DNA from: Micavibrio sp.
GTDB lineage: Bacteria > Pseudomonadota > Alphaproteobacteria > UBA2400
Length of the DNA: 64,000 bases
NCBI GenBank assembly: GCA_040376705.1
Contig: JBEIQE010000001.1
Location: 58,193-122,192, forward strand
Direction: 5' to 3'
The notes under the pieces are model-generated. The model did not search any database. It was not told where the DNA came from and saw only the letters and a list, made by a program, of their open reading frames with translations. Shown in pieces: positions 941 to 19,843 of the stretch; within the stretch, counting starts at the first letter, position 1; every line of letters begins with the position of its first letter. The position numbers were made by a program, and so were the translations under genes.

Positions 941-1591
941 TCAGCGCGCCATTTGAAAATCGATAGCATTTACCTTGCCCGAGGCACATGTGGAGACAAC
1001 GTCATCAACTGTGTTCCCGGTCCATCCAGATGCATCGGGGGGGACCGTAGTGCTTGATGCTCCGCCTCCATTCAGATAACCGATATTGAAACGCAGTTCG
1101 CTAAACCCAGGGAAAAGGGAGATGTTCCATATTTTGCGCGCTAGCCAGATACAATCCGCCTGATCGAGCGGGCCAAGCAGGTAGTGATAACGGCGCCCTC
1201 CACCAGCGAGACTTTCATAAAGAACAGTGAGATAGCCACTGTCGAGCGGCTTGGCCAGATAGTTGGTATCTTGGTAATACCAGGCAGTTCGAATATCCGC
1301 AGGAATGGTCGAGTGCTGAATGAGACCGACATCACCGAAAATCGGGAGTGTATAGTCACCTTGATATCCCACACCGCTAAAGCTTACATCTCGCGCCAGC
1401 ACTTCCATCTGTTGCTGCGCCCTTATTAATGTTGTGAATAATTCCTGCCGTCTTTGATTGGCGGCAACATTACTCGCCGCAACCCAAATGCCGCCGATAA
1501 CCAGGCCGATAACACCGAGCACAATAGCTGCCTCGACGAGGTTGAAACCCCGCTTGTGCTCTGAGCACTGAATTTTATCAGCAGCTACCAT
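941..1591 (-). CDS. Prepilin-type N-terminal cleavage/methylation domain protein (type IV pilin/pseudopilin-like)
   Basis: The N-terminus KRGFNLVEAAIVLGVIGLVIGGIWVAA matches a class III signal peptide (G|F-x-L-x-E plus a hydrophobic helix). The protein is 216 aa. It overlaps the upstream gene by 7 bp. Confidence 0.55.
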   Translation of the reverse strand: MVAADKIQCSEHKRGFNLVEAAIVLGVIGLVIGGIWVAASNVAANQRRQELFTTLIRAQQQMEVLARDVSFSGVGYQGDYTLPIFGDVGLIQHSTIPADIRTAWYYQDTNYLAKPLDSGYLTVLYESLAGGGRRYHYLLGPLDQADCIWLARKIWNISLFPGFSELRFNIGYLNGGGASSTTVPPDASGWTGNTVDDVVSTCASGKVNAIDFQMAR

Positions 1592-4339: not shown

Positions 4340-5065
4340 ATGACCGCGCTGCCTACCGCACGTTTACTGCCACTGCTCATGATCATGGCTGTGCTCATGC
4401 TGGGCACGCGTGGTTATAGTTTCTGGAACGAGTTGAACTACGGTGGCACCTCACAGGCCTCAGCAGCACAGGCCAGTCCGCCCTCCGAGCCGATGCGCGC
4501 GCCCGCTGCAGCGCCTGCTGCGCCAGCGGTTGAAAAGCCAACTGAAGTACCCGGCAGTACTGTATTAGGCACAGAGGCCGAGCCCGCTGCTCCGCGTGGT
4601 GTGGAGCAGATGCCCGCTGCGCCGCTTGATGAAAACATGCCCGGTGAATACACTCCCGCCGAAGTGCAGGTGCTGCAAAGCCTTGGCACGCGCCGTGCCG
4701 AGCTTGATGCCCGCGCTGCCGAGCTTGACCAGCGCGAAGCCCTGCTTGAAGCCGCGCAACAAAGTGTCAGCGACAAGGTTGGCGAGCTGCAGGCCCTGCG
4801 CACCGAGCTGCAGGAATTATTGCGTACCGTCGATACGCAACAAAATGAGCGTATCTTATCATTAGTCAAAATCTACGAGACGATGAAGCCGCGCGAAGCC
4901 GCTGCCATTCTCGAAACCCTTGAAATTCAAGTCGCTCTCGATGTTTTGGAGAAAATGCGCGAAACCAAGAGCGCTCCGATTCTGGCCTCAATGGACCCAC
5001 AAAAGGCAAGCGCCATCACGGTGGAAATGTCACGCCGGCAGCAGTTACCGGAAATTCCCCAATAG
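4340..5065 (+). CDS. MotE-like flagellar motility protein (MgtE_N-like C-terminal domain)
   Basis: Signal peptide/TM, a Pro/Ala-rich linker, a coiled coil, and a C-terminal MgtE-N-like segment (LSLVKIYETMKPREAAAILETL...LASMDPQKASAI). Confidence 0.5.
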   Translation: MTALPTARLLPLLMIMAVLMLGTRGYSFWNELNYGGTSQASAAQASPPSEPMRAPAAAPAAPAVEKPTEVPGSTVLGTEAEPAAPRGVEQMPAAPLDENMPGEYTPAEVQVLQSLGTRRAELDARAAELDQREALLEAAQQSVSDKVGELQALRTELQELLRTVDTQQNERILSLVKIYETMKPREAAAILETLEIQVALDVLEKMRETKSAPILASMDPQKASAITVEMSRRQQLPEIPQ

Positions 5066-5161
5066 TCTTTGTATTATTAACCTTTTGGCAAACAGCTCCC
5101 TTCATAACTGATATTGCGCCGCGGCAGCTGAATGCCCGGTTCATTCATGAGGAGTGGCCAA

Positions 5162-6318: not shown

Positions 6319-9300
6319 ATGCGCCGTACGGGCCAATCGTTACTGCTACGCTCGTCCATCAGCGTGATTGCGCTGATGGCATGGCTGGCGCCTGCAGTTG
6401 CGCTGGCCGATGAAGTTTCACTGCGCGCCGGCGAGCGCGGCAATGGCGTGCGTATGGTGTTCGAGTGGCCGCAGGCGGTGGAGCATTCAGCCCAGCTTTC
6501 CGGCAATCAGCTCAAGCTTACATTTGCGCGCCCGGCTGAGGCCGATGTTGCAAGCCTCACATCGCGCCTTTCTGCATGGGTGAGCGGGGCCAGCCGCTCA
6601 GCCGATGGCCGCGAGATTACCATTACCCTCAAGCAGCCCGCCAAACTGCAAAGTTTTATCTCCGGTACACGTGTGATTGTTGATCTCACGCCCGCTGCCG
6701 CCATCGCCTCAACCTCGCCAACCCCGGGCGCTGATGCACCGGTAGCTATACCCGCTGCTCCCGCTGTGCGTGATGCCGAGGTTCGTATTGGCCGCCATCA
6801 GGGCTTTAATCGCGCGGTGCTCAGGCTGGCGTCGCGCCCCACGATCAACACCAATGGCAACAAGCTTACATTAACCGCGCCCGCCGCCCGCCGCCTGACC
6901 GCCCGCCAGCTAGAGCAGTTAAAATTACCGCAGGTGGAAGATGTAAAGCAGGCTGTTGCAAACGACAGGCTAACACTGACCTTCACCCTCAAGCCGGGGG
7001 TGCATACAGATAGCTTCCGTGTGCCCTCAGGTATCGGAATTAACTTCAACGACGCGCCAGCTGCCGCAGCAGCGCGCCCTGCCGACCGTGCACCAGCACC
7101 GGTAGCGGCCCCCGCACGCAGACCGGTTGAAACAGCCCCGATTACTGCCGAAGCTAAACCACCAGTAACAGAAACCGCCGAAACGCCTGCGCCTGCGCCT
7201 GTAGCACCTGCAACTGCAGCCCCTGCGCCAGTTGCTGCGGCAACGCCCCCAGTTACAACGCCGCCTGCAGTTGTGCCGCCGGCCGGCACTGTAACAACAC
7301 CAGCTGTAAGCATTCCCGCCTCAACCGATGGGGAAGAGTCTGTAGCCACGGTGGTTGCCAGCACGCCAGCTGAAGAGGCAGCACCACCTGCACCTGTGAT
7401 GCCTATGGATGCACCCTTACCGCCGCTTGAGATGACCGTAGGCAAGGATACGCCGCTGGCCGTGTTCCAGCGCGGTGATGCTTTGTATGTGGTGGTGAAT
7501 GAGAAGAACACCCCGCGTGAGCTGATCCCGCTGGTCGGTAGTGCCATGGCCTCATCTCCGCGTGTTGAGCTACTTGCTGGTGAGGGAGGGCGTATTATCC
7601 GTATCGACCTCACCGATAAAAAAGTATTCCCCAGCATCAGCGCAACACCAACCGGCTGGAAGATTACTTTTGGCGAAGCTGCCGTAACGACTGCTGCGCT
7701 GGCCATTAAAGAAGATCCAGACTATTCGCTTGGGCCACGCCTGTTTGTAACGACAGGTAATCCCGCCAGCCCTGTGCTGTTCGCTGACCCCGTTGTAGGG
7801 GATACGCTGGCTGTTATTCCGGTACCTGCAGCCGCTACTGGTGTGGTGAGCCGTATTCGCACGGTGCAGTCTGAGCTGCTGCCGAGCTATCAGGGCCTTG
7901 TGATCAAGTCATGGACCGAGGACCTCAATGTCATTAGCACGGCTGAGGGGATCGAGATCAGTGCTCGTAGCGGTTTCAAACTGGCCGAGCGCTTGCTGGG
8001 CGAGGTTGACCCGGTGGTACCGCTTTCAACGCCCACCCCCACAAATGACTCAGGCATCAACACCAGCGCATCGCCCTATATGCCGCCGTCGTTTAACTTT
8101 GAGGCCATGGGCCAGCCTGAAATCGGCAAGTTCACGCCAGAGCGTGAGCGCTTGCAAAACGAAATCATCAAGGCAGGGGCAGGCGAAAAGCGCCGCGCAT
8201 GGCTTGATCTGGCCAATCATTTCTTCATGTATGGCATGCCGACCGAGGCGGCTGCCATCTGGCAGGACCAAGCCAAGGATAATGCTGATCTGGCTAGCAG
8301 GCCCGAGTTTGCGCTCATTCGCGCGATTGCGGCCTTCTCATCTGGCACGCTTGATAACGTGAAGGCTGCGCTTACCGCGGTAAACCAGCCGACCACCGAC
8401 AGCTCGCTCTGGCATGGCATGCTCGCCGCTAAGGAGAGCGATTGGGTGGCTGCAGCCGAGCGCTTCCGCCCAGCGCTCAACCGCATCTGGGAATATCCCG
8501 AGCCGTATCTCAGCCGTTTGGCGATAGCCGCGATTGATACCTCGCTGCAGACGCAGGATTATGCACAGGCCGAAATGTTGCTGGGCAAACTGAATGACCG
8601 CTACCGCATGGAAGAGCGCAAGCCCACGCCCGCAGTTGAGTACCTGACCGGTGCGCTTGACTTTGGCCGTAACCGTACCGATGAGGCCCGCGCGCATCTT
8701 GGCAGTGCGGCGCAAAGCTGGGACCAGCTGTGGCGTGCCCGGGCCGAGCTGATGCTGATTGATGCCGATATTAAGGACAACCGCAGCCGTCCGGCAGATC
8801 TGGCACAGCGGCTTGAGCGCCTGCGCTTTGCCTGGCGCGGGGATGGGCTTGAGTTCGAGGTGCTGCATCGCCTCGCCAAACAGCATATTGCAGCTGGCGA
8901 TTTTGCCGCCGCGTTTGAAGACTATGCGCAAATGGCCACCAAGTATCCGGCCCTTGCGACTAAAGCGAATGTCGATGCCGAGCAGAAGGCTGCCTTTGTG
9001 CGCATCTTCCAGGGTGAAGACCGCGACCGTACGCCATCTTACAGCCAGCTCGCCATCTGGGACCGTTACCCTGAGTTCCGCCCCACGCAGCCAAGCGTGC
9101 TTGATGATATCAACCTTTATCTGGCAGAGCGTGTTGCGGGCATCGACCTGCTCGACAGGGCTGCCGGTTTTTATAACGATGTGCTCAAGAGCACTACCGA
9201 TGCTGCCGCCCGTGCAGCTTTGGGCACCAAGATCTCTGGTCTTTATCTGCTGGATCACAAATATACCGAAGCGATTGAAGCGCTCGATGTGACCGAGCCC

Positions 9301-9867
9301 AAACCGGTTGAAGGCCAGCCTTCGGTGCTGCGTGAGGATGCCAAGGACGAGCGCCGCCAGTTACGTGCCCGCGCTATTGTGGGCCTTGGCAAGCCGGATG
9401 ACGCATTGGCGCTGCTGGTGAATGATTATAGTGAGCCTGCCACCCGCTTGCGGGCCGATATCAACTGGAAAACCCGCCGCTGGGCCGAGGCTGCAGCAAC
9501 CCTTGATGCCTTGATTGGCGATGCTACCGCCAGCGGCCAGCCGCTGAGTGATGAAAAGTCGGGTCTTATCTTGAAGCGTGCAACGGCACTGGCTCTGGCG
9601 GGCGATCGCACGGCTTTGCGTGACTTACGGATTAAATATGGTGAGCTGATGACCGCCACGGTTGATGGCTCGGCCTTTGCGCTGCTTACCCGCCCTGAAG
9701 TGGCCGGCGGTCTGCCAGACCGCGCGACACTCAACGGCCGTGTGGCTGAGGTTGATTTGTTCCAGAAGTTCCTTGAGCGTTACCGTAGCCCGGCGGCGGC
9801 AGCGCCGAGCGGGGAGACCAGCTCAGCGGCTGTAACGCCTGCAACACCGGCGGCTACGCAGCCGTAA
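6319..9867 (+). CDS. Large exported TPR-repeat protein with Pro/Ala/Thr-rich linker (1182 aa)
   Basis: N-terminal signal peptide (LMAWLAPAVALA). There is a roughly 120-aa proline-rich low-complexity region. The C-terminal half has TPR-like repeats. It is embedded in the flagellar cluster. Confidence 0.6.
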   Translation: MRRTGQSLLLRSSISVIALMAWLAPAVALADEVSLRAGERGNGVRMVFEWPQAVEHSAQLSGNQLKLTFARPAEADVASLTSRLSAWVSGASRSADGREITITLKQPAKLQSFISGTRVIVDLTPAAAIASTSPTPGADAPVAIPAAPAVRDAEVRIGRHQGFNRAVLRLASRPTINTNGNKLTLTAPAARRLTARQLEQLKLPQVEDVKQAVANDRLTLTFTLKPGVHTDSFRVPSGIGINFNDAPAAAAARPADRAPAPVAAPARRPVETAPITAEAKPPVTETAETPAPAPVAPATAAPAPVAAATPPVTTPPAVVPPAGTVTTPAVSIPASTDGEESVATVVASTPAEEAAPPAPVMPMDAPLPPLEMTVGKDTPLAVFQRGDALYVVVNEKNTPRELIPLVGSAMASSPRVELLAGEGGRIIRIDLTDKKVFPSISATPTGWKITFGEAAVTTAALAIKEDPDYSLGPRLFVTTGNPASPVLFADPVVGDTLAVIPVPAAATGVVSRIRTVQSELLPSYQGLVIKSWTEDLNVISTAEGIEISARSGFKLAERLLGEVDPVVPLSTPTPTNDSGINTSASPYMPPSFNFEAMGQPEIGKFTPERERLQNEIIKAGAGEKRRAWLDLANHFFMYGMPTEAAAIWQDQAKDNADLASRPEFALIRAIAAFSSGTLDNVKAALTAVNQPTTDSSLWHGMLAAKESDWVAAAERFRPALNRIWEYPEPYLSRLAIAAIDTSLQTQDYAQAEMLLGKLNDRYRMEERKPTPAVEYLTGALDFGRNRTDEARAHLGSAAQSWDQLWRARAELMLIDADIKDNRSRPADLAQRLERLRFAWRGDGLEFEVLHRLAKQHIAAGDFAAAFEDYAQMATKYPALATKANVDAEQKAAFVRIFQGEDRDRTPSYSQLAIWDRYPEFRPTQPSVLDDINLYLAERVAGIDLLDRAAGFYNDVLKSTTDAAARAALGTKISGLYLLDHKYTEAIEALDVTEPKPVEGQPSVLREDAKDERRQLRARAIVGLGKPDDALALLVNDYSEPATRLRADINWKTRRWAEAAATLDALIGDATASGQPLSDEKSGLILKRATALALAGDRTALRDLRIKYGELMTATVDGSAFALLTRPEVAGGLPDRATLNGRVAEVDLFQKFLERYRSPAAAAPSGETSSAAVTPATPAATQP

Positions 9868-10282
9868 GCGCTCTTGCTTTGTTTTTGCAATTATACGCAC
9901 TTGCCACAAACCCGGCAGTGAATGCGCTATCGATAAGTGCTTTGGCAATTTGGGTCTCGGGCATAAAGGCGCGTAGACTGTAACTGGCGCCAGTTAAGGC
10001 AAAATTCCAATGCAGGTTAGCAAGCTGGCCATAAGCCTGTTTGGGGCTGGCGGCAGCTTGCTGGTTGATGAGCTTATATGTACGGCCAAACGCGCGCGCA
10101 TTGCGATAAGTCAGGTAGGCATAGAGCGCGGTGAGTGGAAGGGTTTTATGCGGGGCAGGTACAGCACTGCGGGGCGGCATCAGCTGGCTTAGTGTGCTGA
10201 TAACGCAAAAGCTGGTAGCAATACCGGCACCTACCAGTCCGCCAATCAGCTTGGGTCGCATGGTATCGGCTGTCTGGCTCAT
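9854..10282 (-). CDS. Small membrane-anchored protein, paralog 1 of 3 (unknown family)
   Basis: 142 aa with an N-terminal TM. It shares the motifs Y-x-x-Y-R-N, DW-N/D-F and AY-x-x-x-S-x-Y-x-x-K-K-x-A with the two adjacent ORFs. Confidence 0.5.
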   Translation of the reverse strand: MSQTADTMRPKLIGGLVGAGIATSFCVISTLSQLMPPRSAVPAPHKTLPLTALYAYLTYRNARAFGRTYKLINQQAAASPKQAYGQLANLHWNFALTGASYSLRAFMPETQIAKALIDSAFTAGFVASAYNCKNKARALTAA

Positions 10283-10710
10283 GCTGCAGGCGGCGGCAGG
10301 GCCTTGGCCTTTTTCTGGTGGTCGTAGGTGCTGTAAAGCATATACGCACCAATAGCAGCTGTAAAAGCTGTAGCGACGAGATGGCTCTCAGGCGCCCTGG
10401 TCGCAAAGTCGATAGCGGCTACACCCAGCAGGCGGCTGGTGTTCCAGTCGGCCACAGCTTCATAACGGTGGAAGTTAAGCGGTGTATGCAGCTTGGTATC
10501 GTTCATGAAGCCGGTATAAGCGACCAGATCACGCTTGCTGCGCTGGAGCATATATACATAAGCGCCTGCCACCAGCGTATTGCGGATGGGCCGCTCCTTC
10601 AGATCATCAAGATTAAAGACATTGTCCCCGAACAACAGCAGGCCGCCCACCATTACCACTGCGCTAATGGTTTTGCTCACTTTCATGGTGGCGGGGTTGG
10701 GCAGGGTCAT
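10279..10710 (-). CDS. Small membrane-anchored protein, paralog 2 of 3
   Basis: 143 aa. It overlaps paralog 1 by 4 bp and shares the same conserved motifs. Confidence 0.5.
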   Translation of the reverse strand: MTLPNPATMKVSKTISAVVMVGGLLLFGDNVFNLDDLKERPIRNTLVAGAYVYMLQRSKRDLVAYTGFMNDTKLHTPLNFHRYEAVADWNTSRLLGVAAIDFATRAPESHLVATAFTAAIGAYMLYSTYDHQKKAKALPPPAA

Positions 10711-10715
10711 GATGC

Positions 10716-11147
10716 CTAGTCGGTAATTCTGGGGCCAGCCAGTTTCTTGTTCTGATAGGCACTGTGAATGCAGTAAGCACCAACCGCCACATCAATAGCG
10801 CCGCGCAGGAGCTTGGCTTCGGGCTGGGCAGTCAAATGATCGGCAGCAACAACCAGTAAGGTACGGCCAAAGTCCCAATCGAGTTGTGCCTGCTGGCGGT
10901 AAAGCTCAGCGCCCTTGAGGGGAGTGCTGTTTGGCGTAGCGCGATGATAGTTTAGCAGGCTGCGGCCATTACGGTAAGTCATATAGCCATAAGCAGCCAG
11001 CAGGCCAAAAGTGCGTGCCGGGCTTTCATCTCTGGCTTTGGTATCGGTTGCCAGACTGTGCAGGCTCATGGCGCAGGCGCCGATGGCAAGGGCACTGAAC
11101 AGTTTGTTGAAAACGGGGCCGGGTGCATAGGGGGCTGGCTTGCTCAT
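10716..11147 (-). CDS. Small membrane-anchored protein, paralog 3 of 3
   Basis: 143 aa with the same motif set (YMTYRNGRS, DWDFGR, AYQNKKLA). Confidence 0.5.
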   Translation of the reverse strand: MSKPAPYAPGPVFNKLFSALAIGACAMSLHSLATDTKARDESPARTFGLLAAYGYMTYRNGRSLLNYHRATPNSTPLKGAELYRQQAQLDWDFGRTLLVVAADHLTAQPEAKLLRGAIDVAVGAYCIHSAYQNKKLAGPRITD

Positions 11148-11228
11148 GATTGTCTCCTTAAGTGTGGCGACAATTTAGTAAGCTGGGCTAGGCGCACGCA
11201 AGCATATACTGCGTTAAGGATTATGAAC

Positions 11229-11636
11229 TTAGTGGTGCAGGTCGTCGTAGATCATTTTAACCAGCTCTTCCTTTTGCCGTGCACCATATTCGGCATTAAA
11301 CGGCTGGCCCCATACCGGCGCTGGCCACGCGGCATCGCCAATACAGCGGGCAATTACATGCACATGCAGCTGGCGGGTGATATTGCCGATGGAGGCAATA
11401 TTAAGCTTGTCTGGCGTTGTGAGCTTGCGCAGCACATGCGCAACTTTATTCACTTCGCGCAGCAGCGTGCCTTGATCAGCCTCGGAAAGGTCAATCAGGT
11501 CGTAAACTTCGGTGCGGCGGGGCACCAGAACCAGCCATGGCCAGGTCGCGTTTTTATGCAGACGTACGCTGCACAGCGTGAGATCGCAGATAAACCAGGT
11601 GTCACGTTCAAGGTTCGGGTCGAGCGCAAAGGTCAT
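11229..11636 (-). CDS. HIT family hydrolase
   Basis: Carries the histidine triad HVHVHVIAR (HxHxHxx). 135 aa. It overlaps the fliP stop by 4 bp. Confidence 0.8.
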   Translation of the reverse strand: MTFALDPNLERDTWFICDLTLCSVRLHKNATWPWLVLVPRRTEVYDLIDLSEADQGTLLREVNKVAHVLRKLTTPDKLNIASIGNITRQLHVHVIARCIGDAAWPAPVWGQPFNAEYGARQKEELVKMIYDDLHH

Positions 11637-12439
11637 GGCGTAGCTCCCACGCCGTAGCTTTGTACCAGCGAGCCCGCCAGCATGTTCCAGCCATCAATCA
11701 ACACAAAGAAGATGATCTTGAACGGGAGCGAGATAACCACTGGTGGCAGCATCATCATACCCATGGCCATGAGGACCGAGGCCACTACCATATCGATTAC
11801 CAAAAACGGCAGGAAGATGAGGAAGCCGATTTCGAATGCGCGCTTGAGCTCCGAGATCATGAAGGCAGGAATAAGCGCAACCAGTGGCGTCTCTTCCGGC
11901 TTCATTTCAGCAGTGCTGTACTTGCCCATATCGAGGAAGAGCTGCAGGTCCTTATCGCGTACATGCACCATCATGAAGGCGTGGAACGGCTCGACTGTGG
12001 CCTCATAGGCGGCTTTCTCGTCTATCGTTTCGTTCATGTACGGCTCGATGCCGTTTTCCCATGCCTTGGTAAAGGTTGGTGCCATGATGAAGAAGGTCAG
12101 GAACAGCGCAAGCGAGATCAGCACCTGATTGGGCGGTGTCTGCTGCACACCAAGCGCCGAGCGCACGAACGAGAGCACCACGATAATGCGGGTAAAGCTG
12201 GTAACCATCACCAAGATGCCCGGCGCAAGCGAGAGCACCGTAAGCATGGCGATAAGCTGGATCATACGGGCGGAGCTGGATGCGCCGCCTTCCTGCGCAG
12301 GGCCGCCCATATCGAGCGACAGGGTCTGTGCAATAGCGGGCAAGGCCAATAGCAGGAAGAGGCTGATCAGGCACAGCTTGAACAGGGCCGGCAGGTGCGG
12401 GCGCAGGTTGTGCACAAATTTCATTGGGGGCAGCTTCAT
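11633..12439 (-). CDS. fliP: Flagellar biosynthesis protein FliP
   Basis: Canonical FliP segments are present: MIQLIAMLTVLSLAPGILVMVTSFTRIIVVLSF and GVQQTPPNQVL, with 4 TM helices. Confidence 0.9.
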   Translation of the reverse strand: MKLPPMKFVHNLRPHLPALFKLCLISLFLLLALPAIAQTLSLDMGGPAQEGGASSSARMIQLIAMLTVLSLAPGILVMVTSFTRIIVVLSFVRSALGVQQTPPNQVLISLALFLTFFIMAPTFTKAWENGIEPYMNETIDEKAAYEATVEPFHAFMMVHVRDKDLQLFLDMGKYSTAEMKPEETPLVALIPAFMISELKRAFEIGFLIFLPFLVIDMVVASVLMAMGMMMLPPVVISLPFKIIFFVLIDGWNMLAGSLVQSYGVGATP

Positions 12440-12720
12440 GATGCGGGAGCCTCGGGGGGAATGTTGCGCTCAATAACTTGGGATTCGCCGGTAGATGAGA
12501 CGAGCAGCAGATGCTCGGCCTTGTCGCGGCGCACGAGGATGAGCTGATGGCGGGCGTCTATCTGCTTCCACTCAATCACGCCTAGGCGGTTGTTGGGATT
12601 ATTGCGGTTAAGCATCGGCACGTTGCGGCCAAACCGGTTGAGCAGCCACGCGCAGAGACCCAGTAGCGACAGGGTAAAGACAAGCGCCATGGCAAGGCGC
12701 AGCAGCAGCTCCAAATTCAT
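12436..12720 (-). CDS. fliO: Flagellar biosynthesis protein FliO
   Basis: A small single-TM protein immediately upstream of fliP and overlapping it. It has the FliO-like L-x-V-x-R segment (RHQLILVRRDKAEHLLLVSS). Confidence 0.6.
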   Translation of the reverse strand: MNLELLLRLAMALVFTLSLLGLCAWLLNRFGRNVPMLNRNNPNNRLGVIEWKQIDARHQLILVRRDKAEHLLLVSSTGESQVIERNIPPEAPAS

Positions 12721-12792: not shown

Positions 12793-13128
12793 TCAAGCCG
12801 ACTCGTCGCTCTTGCCCAGTGCCGCTGCGCTTTTGGCATAGGCGGTGCTGGCCTTCAGGCGGGTGGAAAGCTGCTCGATGCCCGCCTTGGCGGCCTCGCG
12901 CTGGCGGCCAAAGTCCTGCGCCAGTTCGGCCAGCGCCTGATCGATTTCGAGCAGAGCCGGTATATGCATACGGCCCTCTTCCTTGGGCAGCTTTAACAGC
13001 CCGGCGTTGAGGGCCTCGAGCTTGGGGCTCAGCTCGCTCATATCGGCGGCATTGCCCTCGCTCATGAAGGTGCGTAACTGCTCGATGGTATTTTTAACGT
13101 CGGTCAGCTGGTCAGCAAATTCAGTCAT
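12793..13128 (-). CDS. Hypothetical helical protein in flagellar operon
   Basis: 111 aa, acidic, predicted coiled coil. Its start overlaps the preceding FlhB-C-like gene. Confidence 0.4.
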   Translation of the reverse strand: MTEFADQLTDVKNTIEQLRTFMSEGNAADMSELSPKLEALNAGLLKLPKEEGRMHIPALLEIDQALAELAQDFGRQREAAKAGIEQLSTRLKASTAYAKSAAALGKSDESA

Positions 13129-13394
13129 TTTTCGTTCCTTCCGTTGGCCTCGTAAACACGGGCCAGAATATCGCTTACCGCCTGCAGGGCTTCGAGCGGG
13201 ATGCTCTCCTCAAGATCGAGCGCCACAAGAATTTGCGCCAGATCGGCATCTTCACGCACTTTCACGCCATTGGCAAAGGCGAGGGCAAGAATCTCTTCGG
13301 CTACCTTGCCATAGCCGCTGGCCAATATCTGCGGCATGTCGCGGCTGCTTCCCAAAGCAGCGGCAATCTGGCGGCGGGGCTTCTCATCGCTCAT
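13125..13394 (-). CDS. FlhB C-terminal domain-like (EscU/YscU/HrcU family) small protein
   Basis: 89 aa, similar to the post-cleavage FlhB C-terminal domain (VAEEILALAFANGVKVREDADLAQILVALDLEESIPLEALQAVSDILARVY). It has no NPTH motif. Confidence 0.65.
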   Translation of the reverse strand: MSDEKPRRQIAAALGSSRDMPQILASGYGKVAEEILALAFANGVKVREDADLAQILVALDLEESIPLEALQAVSDILARVYEANGRNEK

Positions 13395-14902
13395 TTAATG
13401 TATAGTCCCAGCCATGCCGGCCGCGTTTCAGGCATATACAGCAAGCCTGCAGCTATAAGCAAAATCAGGGCCAGCGTGATCAGGGCTACCAGCCCGCCAG
13501 CCGCACTTATTGTAGCGCGCATGGGCATAACCCGCTTGATTGCCCATTGGCCAACCAGCCCTACGGTGGCCCACCCGAGCAGAGCCAGAATAACAGCAAT
13601 TGCGCCATCTACCGCCATGGGTGGGACCGGCAGGTCAAAGCGCGGGGTATTGAGCCAGCTGTAGTAAATACCGCCAGCAATAACGGCGCTAATCACAGAG
13701 GCCATAACGCGCGGCATCAGCGTGGTGCTGGCAAATACCTTTTTAAGCTGCGCATGAATGGCCATGGCCAAGGGGGCTGTGAGGCCAAACGGATAGCGCT
13801 GGCTAAAGAAGCGGGCAGGCTTTTCCCCCCGGCCCATGGCCTCGGCCAGCTCGCGGATGAGGCGGTATTTCTTGCTCATGGCCACCAGCGTACCAGCGTT
13901 CAGATCGGCGGGCACATGGCTGAGGGTATCGTCCAGCAATGGCGGGAATTCGGACAATACAGGCTTCATGCCTACAGCAATTACATCGTGAATTTCGCCC
14001 TTGAGGTTTAGGTTGTAACGGCCATAGGGCAGCAGGGCATCGTAATCTATAGCTGTACCAACCGGCGAGGGCATGGGCGTAATTACCGCATGCCCGCGTG
14101 CCAGCCCTTCGGCTCCCAGGGCATCAATCACCTGCGTTACGCCTTTGGGCGTAGAGGTGAGTGAGCCGAGCATGAAGCGGCCCTGTGCGGCCACTTTAAG
14201 TAATGTTTCCTCAACAAAAAAGCCGTGTCCCTGGCACTCGATACACAAGGTCAGGCCCGTCGCACGGCAATTGGCGCAGGGGGTGCGGCCTTTGGCCTGG
14301 CAGGTATGGCAGGCCAGTTTCATCTTGCCGCGGCAGTTAGTGCAGGGGCTGTTACGATCGTTCGGATTAACACCATTGCCACTACAGGTTGGGCACCACA
14401 TTTCGCGCGCACCGTTACAGGCCCTGCAGTTGACCTCGCGCTGGCCGTGGCACTGGCGGCAGGTTTCATTCTTCTGGCCACGGCAGATATCGCACGGCAA
14501 AACCAGCGCTACGCGCTTGGTCTGTTTGGCCAAATCCCAGTCGCCCTGCTCAAGGCCCCAGCCGCCGGTGGGGCTTTTTGCCAGCCGTGCGCGTAGCTCT
14601 TCAACCCAGCTCGGATCTTCGGCCAACTCGCTATGGAAGCTGCCGATGTAGCCCGCCAGCTCTTCGCGGCTCTTGAACACGGCAGCTTCGTTGCCCTTGG
14701 GCAAACCCGGCACGCGGGTTTCGGTCGGGACCACCTGCAGCTCAAGCATCAAGCGGCCCGGAAGATGCAGGTCAGTCTCCTGAACAGTTTTGAGTTTGAT
14801 GTCCTCGAGCGAGTAGCCGTTGCCAACCAGAAGGCGGCGGAGCAGGGCCAGGGTTTTGGCCTCGGTATCAGAAGATTTGGGGCCTTCTGGAATATTGCTC
14901 AT
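13391..14902 (-). CDS. Membrane protein with DnaJ-type CxxCxG zinc-finger repeats (8 CxxC motifs) and C-terminal multi-TM region
   Basis: Residues about 140-230 read CDICRGQ..CRQCHGQ..CRACNGA..CPTCSGNG..CTNCRGK..CHTCQAK..CANCRATG..CIECQGHG. The C-terminal roughly 120 aa are hydrophobic. The start overlaps the csrA stop (ATGA). Confidence 0.6.
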   Translation of the reverse strand: MSNIPEGPKSSDTEAKTLALLRRLLVGNGYSLEDIKLKTVQETDLHLPGRLMLELQVVPTETRVPGLPKGNEAAVFKSREELAGYIGSFHSELAEDPSWVEELRARLAKSPTGGWGLEQGDWDLAKQTKRVALVLPCDICRGQKNETCRQCHGQREVNCRACNGAREMWCPTCSGNGVNPNDRNSPCTNCRGKMKLACHTCQAKGRTPCANCRATGLTLCIECQGHGFFVEETLLKVAAQGRFMLGSLTSTPKGVTQVIDALGAEGLARGHAVITPMPSPVGTAIDYDALLPYGRYNLNLKGEIHDVIAVGMKPVLSEFPPLLDDTLSHVPADLNAGTLVAMSKKYRLIRELAEAMGRGEKPARFFSQRYPFGLTAPLAMAIHAQLKKVFASTTLMPRVMASVISAVIAGGIYYSWLNTPRFDLPVPPMAVDGAIAVILALLGWATVGLVGQWAIKRVMPMRATISAAGGLVALITLALILLIAAGLLYMPETRPAWLGLYIK

Positions 14903-16492: not shown

Positions 16493-16771
16493 ATGACTGA
16501 AGCGGATATCATCCAAATCACCCGCGACGCGATCTGGCTGCTGCTGGTCGTGTGCTCGCCGCTTCTTATTATCGCCATGGTGGTGGGTTTCGTTATCTCG
16601 CTCATTCAGGCGCTGACGCAAATTCAGGAAGCGACTATCGCTTTCGTGCCTAAAATCATCATCATGTTCCTCTCGCTCATGTTTTTGCTGCCGTTCATGA
16701 CGCAAAAGATGATCGACTTCGGCAACCGCCTCTCACCGATGATTATTCAGGTTGGTGCCTCACAAGAGTAG
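16493..16771 (+). CDS. fliQ: Flagellar biosynthesis protein FliQ
   Basis: 92 aa with 2 TM. LLIIAMVVGFVISLIQALTQIQEATIAFVPKI is canonical FliQ. Confidence 0.9.
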   Translation: MTEADIIQITRDAIWLLLVVCSPLLIIAMVVGFVISLIQALTQIQEATIAFVPKIIIMFLSLMFLLPFMTQKMIDFGNRLSPMIIQVGASQE

Positions 16772-18299
16772 TGCCTGCAGGCAGGGTCTTCTCCCAAGCC
16801 GAGAGCGCTTTTTCTAGACGCTCAGCCTCAGCCGGATTGGCGAGGTAGAGGCTTACTGTATTGTGAGCTACCACAACGCTATCCCGATTAAAGCTAAATT
16901 CCCCTACTTTGCTCCAGCTGGCAGGTATCTGGTTGGTGAACCAAGGATCGTAAAGAATGAAGAGGCTAACCCCGTGGCGCGTAGCATAATCGGCCAGTGC
17001 CGCCTGATTCCATTTGCTGCCAAAGGCGCGTAGCTGTCTGACCTCCTCAGAGCCAAGGCCAAAAATATCATGCACCTGGTAGGGGTTTTGCCAACTTAGG
17101 TAGCCAATGTCATTCGCACCAACCGGGCCTTGCCAGAAGTTTTTTATCAGGCGCGTGTATTGCACCTGCTGCCAATAGATATCCTGACTGGCGTAGGGCA
17201 TTTTTGCTGTTGTCAGTAAACTAGCGTAAAAACAAAGCATGAATGCAAAGGCCCAGATGCAGCGCGAAGCAGGGCTGAACTTTATTGTCAGTATAACTGG
17301 GCGCAGGGTGTAGAGAAGCGCTATGAAGCCAAAGGCAAGTAGATAGCTATGATAGCGGTCACTCCAGATAACTCGCCCCCCCAGTATATGGGCAAGAATG
17401 CAAAGCATGGCCAGCAGAGCAATACGGTTTCGGTAAATCACCATCGTGATTGACAGGAAAACCAGTAAGATAATCAAAATGGATGACTGCGGATGCAGGA
17501 GGTTGAGCACGACACGCTCAAGAAAGACCTGAAACGGTTCGGCACCATTAATCGCGTCGGTTTTTATAAGAACCGAGCCCGCTACAAGAGGTAGGCCAAG
17601 TGAGTACAGATAAGCTGCATGTGCCAGCTGGATGGCTGTTTCTGTGGCGCCCACCAGCACGGCTACCAGTCTGTAACGCGTCGTCAACAGCCATAACAGG
17701 GTAAGGCCGAACAGCGCTATGCCTTCGTAGCGGATCATGGGCATAAGAATAAGCGCCGCCCAGAACCACTTGGGCAGAGGTTTATTCTCATTTAGATCGA
17801 TCAGTGCTGAGAGTACAGCCAACACGGTAGTAATATGCAGGCTGTGTTCCATGCCCAGCAGCAGCATGGTATAAATGTTGGTGGCCAGAGCAAAAAAGGC
17901 TACTAGCCAGCCAGTCGCATATGTTGGGTAAAGGTTGGTGAGGTTCAGCTGGCCAGAGATGCGGCACAGCAGCCACAGGCTGATGGCCGCAGGCACCAGG
18001 TTGAGAAACAGTGGTGCCAGCAGAAAATCAGCAAATGGCACCAGCAACCACGGATAGATTATTGATGAAGAGGCTGCCGCCGGAATGCCTGCCGTCGTAC
18101 CGTATTGGCCCGGCAAGAGGCTGGCGATAGCCAAATGAATATAGGTATCGTCTATCGGATAGGTGAAATGTCCCTCGGTCATATACAGGCTGCACGCCAG
18201 AAAAATGGCGATGATCAGCCCAGAGAGGGCAAGGGTTTGGGCATAAATACGCGGTGATGTACTTGAGTAAACCATATGCTTAACTTCGCCAGTGCTCAT
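16743..18299 (-). CDS. Multi-pass membrane protein with C-terminal soluble domain, paralog A (GT-C-like?)
   Basis: 518 aa. About 10 TM helices are followed by a roughly 180-aa C-terminal domain. A DD motif after the first TM (FTYPIDDTYIHL) is present. It is highly similar to the adjacent paralog B. It is antisense to the fliQ/fliR operon, and its 3' end overlaps the fliQ 3' end. Confidence 0.6.
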   Translation of the reverse strand: MSTGEVKHMVYSSTSPRIYAQTLALSGLIIAIFLACSLYMTEGHFTYPIDDTYIHLAIASLLPGQYGTTAGIPAAASSSIIYPWLLVPFADFLLAPLFLNLVPAAISLWLLCRISGQLNLTNLYPTYATGWLVAFFALATNIYTMLLLGMEHSLHITTVLAVLSALIDLNENKPLPKWFWAALILMPMIRYEGIALFGLTLLWLLTTRYRLVAVLVGATETAIQLAHAAYLYSLGLPLVAGSVLIKTDAINGAEPFQVFLERVVLNLLHPQSSILIILLVFLSITMVIYRNRIALLAMLCILAHILGGRVIWSDRYHSYLLAFGFIALLYTLRPVILTIKFSPASRCIWAFAFMLCFYASLLTTAKMPYASQDIYWQQVQYTRLIKNFWQGPVGANDIGYLSWQNPYQVHDIFGLGSEEVRQLRAFGSKWNQAALADYATRHGVSLFILYDPWFTNQIPASWSKVGEFSFNRDSVVVAHNTVSLYLANPAEAERLEKALSAWEKTLPAGTTLVRHQPE

Positions 18300-19843
18300 T
18301 TATATTGATGCCTTATAAGTGTTGTGCCGGCTGGCAGCGTCTTCTGCCATGCCATGAGGGCTTTTTCAAGCCGCTCGGCCTCAGCTGGATTGGCGAGATA
18401 AAGACTTACATAATTGTAGGCAACATTAACGTGTGGCCGGTTGAAGCTGAAATCTGCAACCTTGACCCAGCTGTCAGGCAGCTGTCCTGTAAACCAGGGG
18501 TCATAAATAATAAACAGGCTTAGATTATATCTGTTTGCATAGTCGTCCAGCTCTGCCGGATCCCAGCGATTACCATGCACGCGCAGCTGTCGCACTTCCT
18601 CAGAGCCGAGGCCGTAAATATCGTAAATCGGATAGGGGCTTTGCCAGCTTAGATAACCTATGTCGTTTGCACCAACTGGGTCTTGCCAAAAATCGCGTAC
18701 CAGCCGCGTGAATTGTACCTGCTGTAGATAAATATCCTGACTGGCATAAGGGGTTTTAAGCGTTGTCCAGAAGCTGCTGTGATAACTGGCAACAAAAACA
18801 ATCAGCCACAGTAGCCGGGAAATTGCATTGAACTCTATGCGAGCGATAGTTGGGCGCAGCAAATACATCAATACGATGAAGCTGAACGCGAGCAGATAGC
18901 TTTGGTAACGATCGCCCCATACAATTTTTCCCCCAATAAAATGAGCAATAATGCAGATAAACGCCAGTGCCACGATGCGATTGGCATGTTTGCCTGGCGC
19001 GAACAGCAGAAGTGCTGAGATAATAAGTAATATCCAGCTTCGTGGCTGAATCAGGTTATTGCGGATACGATCAAGAATACTGATGATTGGAGTGTCTATG
19101 TTGTTTACGCCGGTTTTTATCAGAATTGAGGCCGCTACCATGGGCAAGCCAGATGAATGCATATAAGCGGCGTGAATAAGGTGGACGCCCATCTCTATCC
19201 CGCCAACTATTAGGGCTGACATCCTGTATTGTGTGGTGAGCAGCCAGAGCAATGTAATGCCGAACATCGCAAATCCTTCGTAACGGATCATCGGCATCAG
19301 GATGAGTGCTGCCCAGAACCATTTGGGCAGTGGCTTCTTGTCATTCAGGTCGATCAGGCCGGAGAGTACAGCCAGAACAGCTGTAATATGCAGGCTGTGC
19401 TCCATCCCCAGCAGCGGCATACTGTAAAGGTTGCCCGCCAAACCAAGCAGCAAAATTATAGGGGCTGTTGCCCACGCGGGATAAAGAGTGATGAGGTTAA
19501 GCTGGGCCGAGATGCGGCAGAGCAGCCATAGGCTGGTTGCAAGTGCCAGCAGGTTAAGTACAAGTGGGGCAAACACCAAGTCGGCAAAGGGTGCCAGAAG
19601 CCACGGATATATAAGTGAGGATGAGGCTGCTGCCGGAATACCTGCCGTTGTGCCATATTGCCCCGGCAAGAGGCTGGCGATGGCCAGATGGATATAGGCA
19701 TCGTCAACCGCATAAGTGAAATGCCCGTCAGTCAGGTACAGGCTGCAACCCACAAGAACGGCAATAACCAGGCCCGAGAGGGCAAGCGTTTGGGCGTAAA
19801 TACGGGCAGAAGGCATGACGGCACATATAGCTGAGAGCGCCAT
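18296..19843 (-). CDS. Multi-pass membrane protein with C-terminal soluble domain, paralog B (GT-C-like?)
   Basis: 515 aa. It aligns along its full length with paralog A (FTYAVDDAYIHLAIASLLPGQYGTTAGIPAAASS...ANPAEAERLEKAL). Confidence 0.6.
   Translation of the reverse strand: MALSAICAVMPSARIYAQTLALSGLVIAVLVGCSLYLTDGHFTYAVDDAYIHLAIASLLPGQYGTTAGIPAAASSSLIYPWLLAPFADLVFAPLVLNLLALATSLWLLCRISAQLNLITLYPAWATAPIILLLGLAGNLYSMPLLGMEHSLHITAVLAVLSGLIDLNDKKPLPKWFWAALILMPMIRYEGFAMFGITLLWLLTTQYRMSALIVGGIEMGVHLIHAAYMHSSGLPMVAASILIKTGVNNIDTPIISILDRIRNNLIQPRSWILLIISALLLFAPGKHANRIVALAFICIIAHFIGGKIVWGDRYQSYLLAFSFIVLMYLLRPTIARIEFNAISRLLWLIVFVASYHSSFWTTLKTPYASQDIYLQQVQFTRLVRDFWQDPVGANDIGYLSWQSPYPIYDIYGLGSEEVRQLRVHGNRWDPAELDDYANRYNLSLFIIYDPWFTGQLPDSWVKVADFSFNRPHVNVAYNYVSLYLANPAEAERLEKALMAWQKTLPAGTTLIRHQYK

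Follow-up and report, generated by a model that had tools for sequence, protein, structure and literature searches.

A rare family of small predicted membrane proteins, found at the end of a flagellar operon and as a variable cassette in prophages, suggests an accessory, possibly phage-exclusion, role

The lambda prophage expresses RexB, a polytopic inner-membrane protein with approximately four transmembrane helices, and the lambda gene lom is positioned after the tail gene J. Gp15 of phage HK97, a small inner-membrane protein whose moron gene lies in the tail region, prevents genome injection, and most of its homologs (YebO) are chromosomal and located outside prophages (PMC3594210). The Cor proteins of phi80 and N15 inactivate the phage's own receptor, FhuA (PMC3594210, PMC11436027), and P22 SieA, an inner-membrane protein expressed from the prophage, prevents genome entry (PMC10883804). 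Here, we describe three genes, A, B, and C, located at 9854 to 11147 in a 64,000-nucleotide stretch of DNA from Micavibrio sp. (contig JBEIQE010000001.1, positions 58,193 to 122,192; “the window” hereafter). They belong to a very rare and previously undescribed family of basic proteins of approximately 140 to 165 amino acids (aa), and they form a copy-number-variable accessory cassette at the end of a flagellar operon rather than a core component of it. Because other members of the family sit in prophages as a variable add-on cassette, the data suggest an accessory, possibly phage-exclusion, role rather than a core flagellar one.

A preliminary description of this DNA had recognized three consecutive same-strand open reading frames (ORFs) of 142 to 143 aa, and this is exactly what is found at these positions (Table 1). 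As had also been described, the array converges on a giant gene with which its stop codons overlap; the same 3' overlap, of 4 to 23 nucleotides (nt), is present in the related loci L001, L008, and L010. The array had been placed upstream of HIT and fliP; it lies transcriptionally downstream of them, since transcription on the minus strand proceeds from fliO through fliP and HIT to A, B, and C. The junctions among the fliO-like, fliP, and HIT genes (11229 to 12720, in the same direction as the array) each consist of a 4-nt overlap. A strong Shine-Dalgarno sequence, AAGGAGA, is found at 11153 to 11159, 6 nt ahead of the ATG of gene A. A scan of the 81-nt spacer between HIT and A gave no terminator-like and no sigma-70-like site, and the two elements that this spacer has in common with L001, CTGCTTGC and ACTAAATTG, correspond to no recognizable sigma-54 or sigma-28 consensus. 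Given the strong ribosome-binding site of A, the 5-nt gap between A and B, the ATGA overlap of B with C, and the lack of a terminator after HIT, cotranscription with fliO-fliP-HIT is probable, the array forming the end of a single operon.

The three proteins are real paralogs, with all three pairs far above background identity in BLASTP: A and B are 37% identical over 100 aa (expect value [E], 1e-15), A and C are 30% identical over 119 aa (E, 2e-12), and B and C are 23% identical over 90 aa (E, 7e-5). The motifs that had been proposed as common to them are retained only in relaxed form. Y-x-x-Y-R-N is present in A and C and missing from B, DW[ND]F occurs in A and in neither B nor C, and AY-x-x-S-x-Y-x-x-KK-x-A, as written, is found in none of the three. 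The patterns Y-x-Y-x3-R, W-[ND], and S-x-Y-x2-3-K-rich, in the last of which S-x-Y precedes a lysine-rich tail, are shared by all of them. In public data, protein A is identical to P0001 and has an ortholog, P0002, at 66 to 67% identity; orthologs of B (P0004, 76%; P0007, 59%) and of C (P0006, 68%; P0009, 48%) were likewise retrieved, and B also matches the phage-borne proteins P0010 and P0011 (BLASTP E, 3e-8 and 3e-9).

A lipobox-like sequence, IGAC, is located at residues 22 to 25 of protein A and corresponds to ISAC in its L001 ortholog; A may be lipid modified, or the resemblance may be coincidental. Assignment of the whole family as bacterial lipoproteins, for which a site of the form [LVI][ASTVI][GAS]C conserved family-wide at the end of the signal peptide was taken as the criterion, was rejected because the site is restricted to A-type proteins and missing from the other 18 members.

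The preliminary description had proposed to look for homologs in tandem and near flagellar genes, and tandem arrays were indeed retrieved both in the flagellar slot and in prophages. Four related uncultured alphaproteobacterial lineages share the gene order csrA, a gene for a 503-aa cysteine-rich protein, an flhB-C-like gene, a gene for a 111-aa protein, fliO, fliP, HIT, and the array, followed by the convergent giant gene and then by cheZ, cheY, and a motE-like gene. The fliO-fliP-HIT-array order of the window is thus kept in L001, L008, and L010, and the giant proteins of the four lineages are 64 to 76% identical. The number of family genes in this slot varies: the window and L001 have three, L010 has two (one A/B-like and one C-like), and L008 has a single B-like copy that starts 5 nt after HIT. 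When 185,579 species-representative genomes were searched with the giant protein, relatives were found only in three uncultured alphaproteobacterial metagenome-assembled genomes (29 to 31% identity), one of which is labeled Micavibrio. These distant homologs of the giant gene (L017 to L019) have the same MotE-CheY-CheZ neighborhood. In L018, the MotE-CheY-CheZ-giant segment is retained and is convergent with genes for FliP, FliO, and the FlhB-C-like protein, and the FliP gene (63% identical at the protein level) ends approximately 40 nt from the stop of the giant gene. Neither a family member nor HIT is present in the L018 cluster. HIT and the array are therefore lineage-specific additions at the convergent junction, and the acquisition of the HIT gene may have accompanied that of the array. 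A core flagellar component was rejected as an identity for the family on account of this absence and of the copy number of 1 to 3 among close relatives, and annotation of these genes as flagellar by their location alone is unjustified. A functional link between the array and the convergent giant gene, which had also been suggested, has adjacency as its only evidence, and the distant homolog of the giant gene in L018 abuts fliP with no family member in between.

The more distant members P0010, P0011, and P0012 all occupy one and the same position in prophages. On one side, this slot is bounded by a protein of approximately 940 aa resembling the central tail fiber J, and on the other, by a conserved 278-aa tail-fiber-like protein, which is followed by a 92-aa gene, an endolysin gene, and a GTA_holin_3TM gene. 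PHROGs matches in these loci comprise central tail fiber J, distal tail protein, tape measure, and endolysin, and the element in L013 is integrated, since bacterial genes adjoin it on one side of its 203-kb contig. The family genes run antisense to the tail, fiber, and lysis genes, which would imply a separate promoter for the phage copies. In Roseobacter phage CRP-831, whose tail and fiber genes are contiguous, the tail protein is 36% identical to the J-like protein over 93% of the length of the latter. When the 278-aa protein served as an anchor, another 160 phage loci were retrieved, and family genes were restricted to the closest relatives. Within these, the slot holds four copies in L013, two in L014/L015 and in L023/L102, one in L016, L021/L101, and L022, and none in L024, L025, and L026, where only 17 to 25 nt separate the J-like and fiber genes. 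The family genes thus lie between genes that are adjacent in related phages, which is the position of a phage moron. The backbone on either side is well conserved (58 to 99% identity for J and 79 to 98% for the fiber protein), and the occupants of the slot are mostly nonorthologous subtypes that are 11 to 36% identical. The sequences of the family are more diverse in this slot than in the flagellar one.

Three further observations concern the phage loci. The slot of L022 contains, beside its family gene, an extra unannotated ORF of 153 aa (4641 to 5102, plus strand) with no Pfam match; the slot thus accepts other cargo, and a guess that it encodes a HicB-like antitoxin was unsupported. The first gene of the four-copy array of L013 (7487 to 7981, plus strand) probably starts at an internal ATG at 7559, giving 140 aa instead of the 164 aa called, since the L023 homolog aligns from residue 1 (44% identity). 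The window ORF at 941 to 1591 (minus strand) is 58% identical over 45 aa (E, 7e-13) to the L021 ORF at 9991 to 10596 (minus strand), whose contig carries a prophage, and apart from this stretch and the family itself, the window and the phage loci have nothing in common.

The ratios of nonsynonymous to synonymous substitution rates (dN/dS) relative to the L001 orthologs, calculated according to Nei and Gojobori, are 0.30 for A, 0.15 for B, and 0.14 for C, with synonymous divergences (dS) of 0.96, 1.02, and 1.69, respectively. For the adjacent HIT gene, dN/dS is 0.14 (dS, 0.90), and for fliP, it is 0.07 (dS, 0.83). These values, which indicate purifying selection, support a protein-coding function, and A, B, and C are real protein-coding genes under a purifying selection comparable to that on HIT. 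The diversifying selection proposed in the preliminary description disagrees with these ratios, and divergence among the paralogs is spread evenly over all segments, with no hypervariable patch specific to any of them. Its characterization of the array as an old tandem set is correct, given that the A/B/C triplet is found in the same order in the second organism, L001, where the neighboring genes are 76 to 90% identical; a simple triplication, however, is not what the family records. Protein C is as far from A and B as it is from the phage-borne members, and relatives with one or two copies exist. A neighbor-joining tree, of low resolution at such identities, contains several deep subtypes, and the flagellar A/B and C clades do not form a group of their own, apart from the phage members; the arrays therefore combine old subtypes. 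The most plausible interpretation of the window array is a pair of one A/B-type and one C-type gene, as is present in L010, with A and B having split later. Capture of the family from phage to chromosome is tentatively favored as the direction of transfer, since the phage slot is the more diverse and the flagellar slot is empty in L018.

No named family could be assigned in the preliminary description, and none was found in Pfam, NCBIfam, PHROGs, PADLOC, or the PDB. Searches with the hidden Markov models (HMMs) of Pfam-A and NCBIfam, libraries that include FliO, FliQ, FliL, FliX, and the holin families, gave nothing above the gathering or curated cutoffs, the best matches below cutoff being PNTB_4TM (13.3 bits; cutoff, 26.2), YbiJ (14.5 bits; cutoff, 110), and cobJ (14.1 bits; cutoff, 246). 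Scanning 16 members against PHROGs v4 and PADLOC gave best E values of 0.06 and 0.025, from one member each, and nothing significant came from a profile search against the complete set of PDB sequences. The family is extremely rare in the collections searched, the size of which ranges up to 15 billion proteins. In 5.8 billion clusters, word-indexed searches retrieved 2, 7, and 5 proteins, and an exhaustive HMMER search with an eight-sequence profile retrieved eight clusters at an E value of ≤1e-3 among 1.84 billion representatives of 50%-identity clusters. Iterated HMM searches that included every ORF of the fetched loci brought the total to approximately 20 distinct proteins, without a single match outside the family. 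Scans of IMG/VR with P0010 and the alpha-subtype pair, scans of JGI metagenomes with B-type patterns, and a tblastn search of 50,697 isolated phage genomes with P0010 retrieved no member, and later scans with subtype patterns found again two contigs that were already known and nothing else.

The AlphaFold2 model of protein A consists of four long helices (residues 11 to 34, 43 to 70, 79 to 107, and 113 to 137), with a mean predicted local distance difference test score of 79 and a predicted template modeling score of 0.70. The phage member P0010, modeled from a 12-row alignment, has the same four-helix architecture (84.6 and 0.76, respectively), and the four-helix bundle gave no specific fold match. 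Each of the three window proteins has a hydrophobic segment at approximately residues 12 to 34, with Kyte-Doolittle maxima of 1.54 to 1.78 over 19 residues. The averaged hydropathy profile of 16 members shows a strong hydrophobic segment at 15 to 34, followed by segments at 47 to 57, 93 to 106, and 113 to 130. Lysine and arginine are concentrated at 59 to 70 and in the C-terminal tail, and the loops at 35 to 45 and 108 to 113 are acidic or neutral, the latter with a conserved Pro-Glu. Orienting the helices by the positive-inside rule, the family most probably consists of polytopic inner-membrane proteins with both termini in the cytoplasm and a basic cytoplasmic hairpin. The membrane anchoring and N-terminal transmembrane segment described previously are thereby retained, and the single anchor gives way to what are probably four helices, because four hydrophobic helices and a positive-inside charge pattern fit a polytopic protein better than an anchor with a soluble domain. 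An integral inner-membrane location is predicted from the hydrophobic helices (one strong, three moderate), the positive-inside charges, and the four-helix model. We have high confidence in this structural and evolutionary description of the family.

Among the functions considered, envelope-level phage exclusion ranks first and is put forward tentatively, as possible and still short of probable. It is suggested by the niche of the phage copies, which lie beside receptor-binding genes, are antisense to them, and are dispensable and swappable, as is characteristic of exclusion proteins expressed from prophages. In a narrow lambda-like clade of prophages, the cassette is an antisense insertion that separates the J-like tail-tip gene from the tail-fiber gene; in a lineage of uncultured Alphaproteobacteria, it has become fixed, together with HIT, at the distal end of the fliO-fliP operon. 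The chromosomal copies would there be read through from flagellar promoters and are translationally coupled. The proteins would guard the envelope against incoming phage, with genome entry or formation of the tail-tip channel blocked at the inner membrane; each diverged paralog would add a specificity, and fixation behind fliP would couple expression of the array to the flagellum. A more specific version, which we consider doubtful, is a two-state antiphage module, consisting of a swappable prophage array and a host copy wired into the flagellar export operon. The timing of protection would then coincide with assembly of the flagellum, which is a phage receptor, and the module would act against flagellotropic phages or directly via the export gate or motor of the flagellum; in an equivalent version, the phage copies would modulate the flagellar apparatus of the host.

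Several points weigh against exclusion. The proposal is drawn from gene position and analogy, and known exclusion and defense proteins gave no PHROGs or PADLOC match and, for RexB, an hhalign probability of 0.2%. The chromosomal copies are syntenic in four lineages and under ordinary purifying selection, which is atypical of arms-race genes. Most of the conserved residues and the largest extramembrane part are predicted to be cytoplasmic, which is not the obvious side for blocking a tail. Two further hallmarks of classic morons were not demonstrable: scans of the phage slot for promoter and terminator consensus sequences gave nothing above shuffled expectation, and no deviant base composition marks the array, whose GC content, overall and at third codon positions (0.53 to 0.74 for the latter), is within or slightly below the range of the flanking genes. 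Finally, the close association with an operon for flagellar export would be compatible with a flagellar role as well.

Such a role is the main alternative, and we regard it as rather unlikely. The proteins would be lineage-specific flagellar accessory subunits or regulators, for example, as small membrane partners of the FliPQR/FlhAB export gate, of the stator, or of the giant periplasmic AMIN protein, and the prophage copies, which fall under the same judgment, would be host-derived cargo that modulates the motility or the flagellar receptor of the lysogen. In all four lineages, the array is codirectional with fliO-fliP-HIT, tightly spaced, and probably cotranscribed, and its translational coupling suggests stoichiometric coproduction. 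Purifying selection, stable synteny, and the conserved basic hairpin and tail predicted to be cytoplasmic point the same way. Prophages are moreover known to carry cargo that remodels the flagellum, although in the documented case, the reason was found not to be superinfection exclusion (PMC13418256). However, fliP directly abuts the giant gene in the otherwise syntenic L018, close relatives differ in copy number, HMM searches gave no similarity to flagellar families of Pfam or NCBIfam, and diversity is higher in the phage slot than in the flagellar one. A position at a convergent junction is, furthermore, what is expected of a tolerated insertion. It is improbable that we are dealing instead with in situ triplication, recent to old, under diversifying selection and in partnership with the convergent protein, as originally described. 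The tandem paralogs are of equal length and their relatives likewise overlap the 3' end of the giant gene, but the selection is purifying (dN/dS, 0.13 to 0.30 against orthologs), the subtypes are as deep as the whole family, and one- and two-copy states exist. A homolog of the giant gene occurs without the array, convergent overlap does not imply coregulation, and the assignment of tetratricopeptide repeats (TPRs) to the giant protein is faint.

The architecture of the family would be compatible with immunity proteins against a membrane-damaging toxin, such as a pore-forming bacteriocin, a tailocin, or a holin-like effector, with the arrays representing orphan specificities, as in other polytopic immunity proteins. 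The family, small, polytopic, and basic in its predicted inner-membrane architecture, may resemble the immunity proteins of pore formers, which have three to four transmembrane helices, and very divergent paralog arrays of variable copy number on mobile elements would fit as well. There is, however, no toxin gene adjacent in either the flagellar or the phage context, no PADLOC or Pfam immunity family was matched, and the only membrane-active neighbors in the phages are their own holin and endolysin, on the opposite strand; this explanation, too, has little to recommend it. Lysis regulation by holin- or antiholin-like proteins is the least likely of the possibilities considered and would be very surprising. 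Small size, hydrophobic helices, and a lysine-rich C-terminal tail are reminiscent of holins, and the phage copies are within approximately 1.5 kb of the endolysin and GTA_holin_3TM genes, but they are antisense to both, and a separate holin is already there. The slot is dispensable, being empty in the sibling phages L024 to L026, the chromosomal copies sit in a flagellar operon without an endolysin partner, and no holin PHROG or Pfam family was matched.

The surroundings of the array contain other proteins of interest. In the convergent giant protein, an AMIN domain (residues 93 to 172; 21.0 bits; cutoff, 20.5) is the sole match above threshold. Its size and convergent orientation are as previously described, and the TPR label is weak, with a TPR_2 match (E, 0.2) below threshold. 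In L018, a motB-like gene immediately precedes the giant gene, a hint that the giant protein may act in the stator or as a periplasmic scaffold. A second tandem pair of genes in the flagellar cluster (16743 to 18299 and 18296 to 19843, both minus strand) encodes polytopic proteins of approximately 515 aa that are 66% identical over 502 aa, neither with a Pfam or NCBIfam match. The pair adjoins fliR/flhB and is missing from the syntenic L001 cluster, and its DD-containing N-terminal membrane region gives the impression of a GT-C-type glycosyltransferase. A 503-aa protein (13391 to 14902, minus strand) has a DnaJ-like cysteine-rich zinc finger with repeated CxxC, a hydrophobic C-terminal part, and weak BSD2_CRD and DnaJ matches. 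Its gene lies between csrA and a stand-alone 89-aa gene resembling the C-terminal domain of FlhB (13125 to 13394), an arrangement kept in L001 and L008; we know of no described flagellar role for such a protein. Upstream of the CheY-CheZ pair of the flagellar cluster, a gene at 4340 to 5065 (plus strand) encodes a 241-aa protein with an MgtE_N domain, with a subthreshold similarity (E, 7.9e-9; 35.6 bits; cutoff, 110) to the spirochete flagellar collar protein FlbB.

Table 1. Positions in the window of the array genes, their junctions, and the adjoining genes
Feature	Position	Strand	Remarks
Gene A	10716-11147	-	143 aa; A/B clade; opens the array
Gene B	10279-10710	-	143 aa; nearest kin is the single-copy form of locus L008
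Gene C	9854-10282	-	142 aa; own clade; paralog farthest from the others
HIT-A spacer	11148-11228	-	81 nt
Gap between A stop and B start	10711-10715	-	5 nt
ATGA overlap of B stop with C start	10279-10282	-	Translational coupling
3' overlap of C with the 1182-aa gene	9854-9867	Convergent	14 nt
FliO-like protein	12436-12720	-	Weak Pfam match (E, 0.007)
FliP	11633-12439	-	Pfam FliP (E, 8.5e-83)
HIT-family protein	11229-11636	-	Pfam HIT (E, 1.4e-14)
Secreted 1182-aa (giant) protein	6319-9867	+	Convergent with the array; N-terminal AMIN, Ala/Pro-rich linkers, helical C-terminal half

The prophage slot and the series of copy numbers in both contexts are new here. Regardless of function, an orphan family outside Pfam, NCBIfam, and PHROGs is defined with its fold, its likely topology, and two genomic niches. 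If the exclusion reading were true, an unrecognized family would join the few small inner-membrane proteins that control entry at the envelope, and recruitment of genes of this kind into a flagellar operon would be seen for the first time, tying the expression of a receptor to protection. The extreme rarity of the family limits its general importance unless the mechanism, a link between flagellum and phage, proves to be new.

Compared with known systems, the family shares with FliO, FliQ, and FliL small size, a (here predicted) membrane location, and an operon with fliP, but it has no HMM similarity to them, is missing in L018, varies in copy number, and has homologs on prophages. RexB, with 144 aa in the lambda record, is similar in size and predicted topology, but it works with RexA and is encoded in the immunity region, whereas the family is found at another locus. 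Homology to RexB was rejected because of the hhalign probability of 0.2% and the lack of an adjacent RexA-like gene. SieA is unrelated in sequence (no PHROG match), occupies another genomic position, and is a single-copy gene. Lom and cor occupy a comparable accessory slot beside J and the tail-fiber genes, although their products are outer membrane proteins or directed to the outer membrane and are unrelated in sequence and fold to the helical proteins described here, which are predicted to be in the inner membrane and are encoded antisense to the tail genes. HK97 gp15 and YebO differ from the family in sequence (no PHROG match at an E value of ≤0.1), in that the family forms sets of diverged copies, and in that exclusion is established for gp15 and would here follow by analogy. 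Nevertheless, gp15, a small membrane protein encoded by an extra gene in a lambda-like tail region, is the closest analogy, and its dual distribution in phages and chromosomes matches that of the family.

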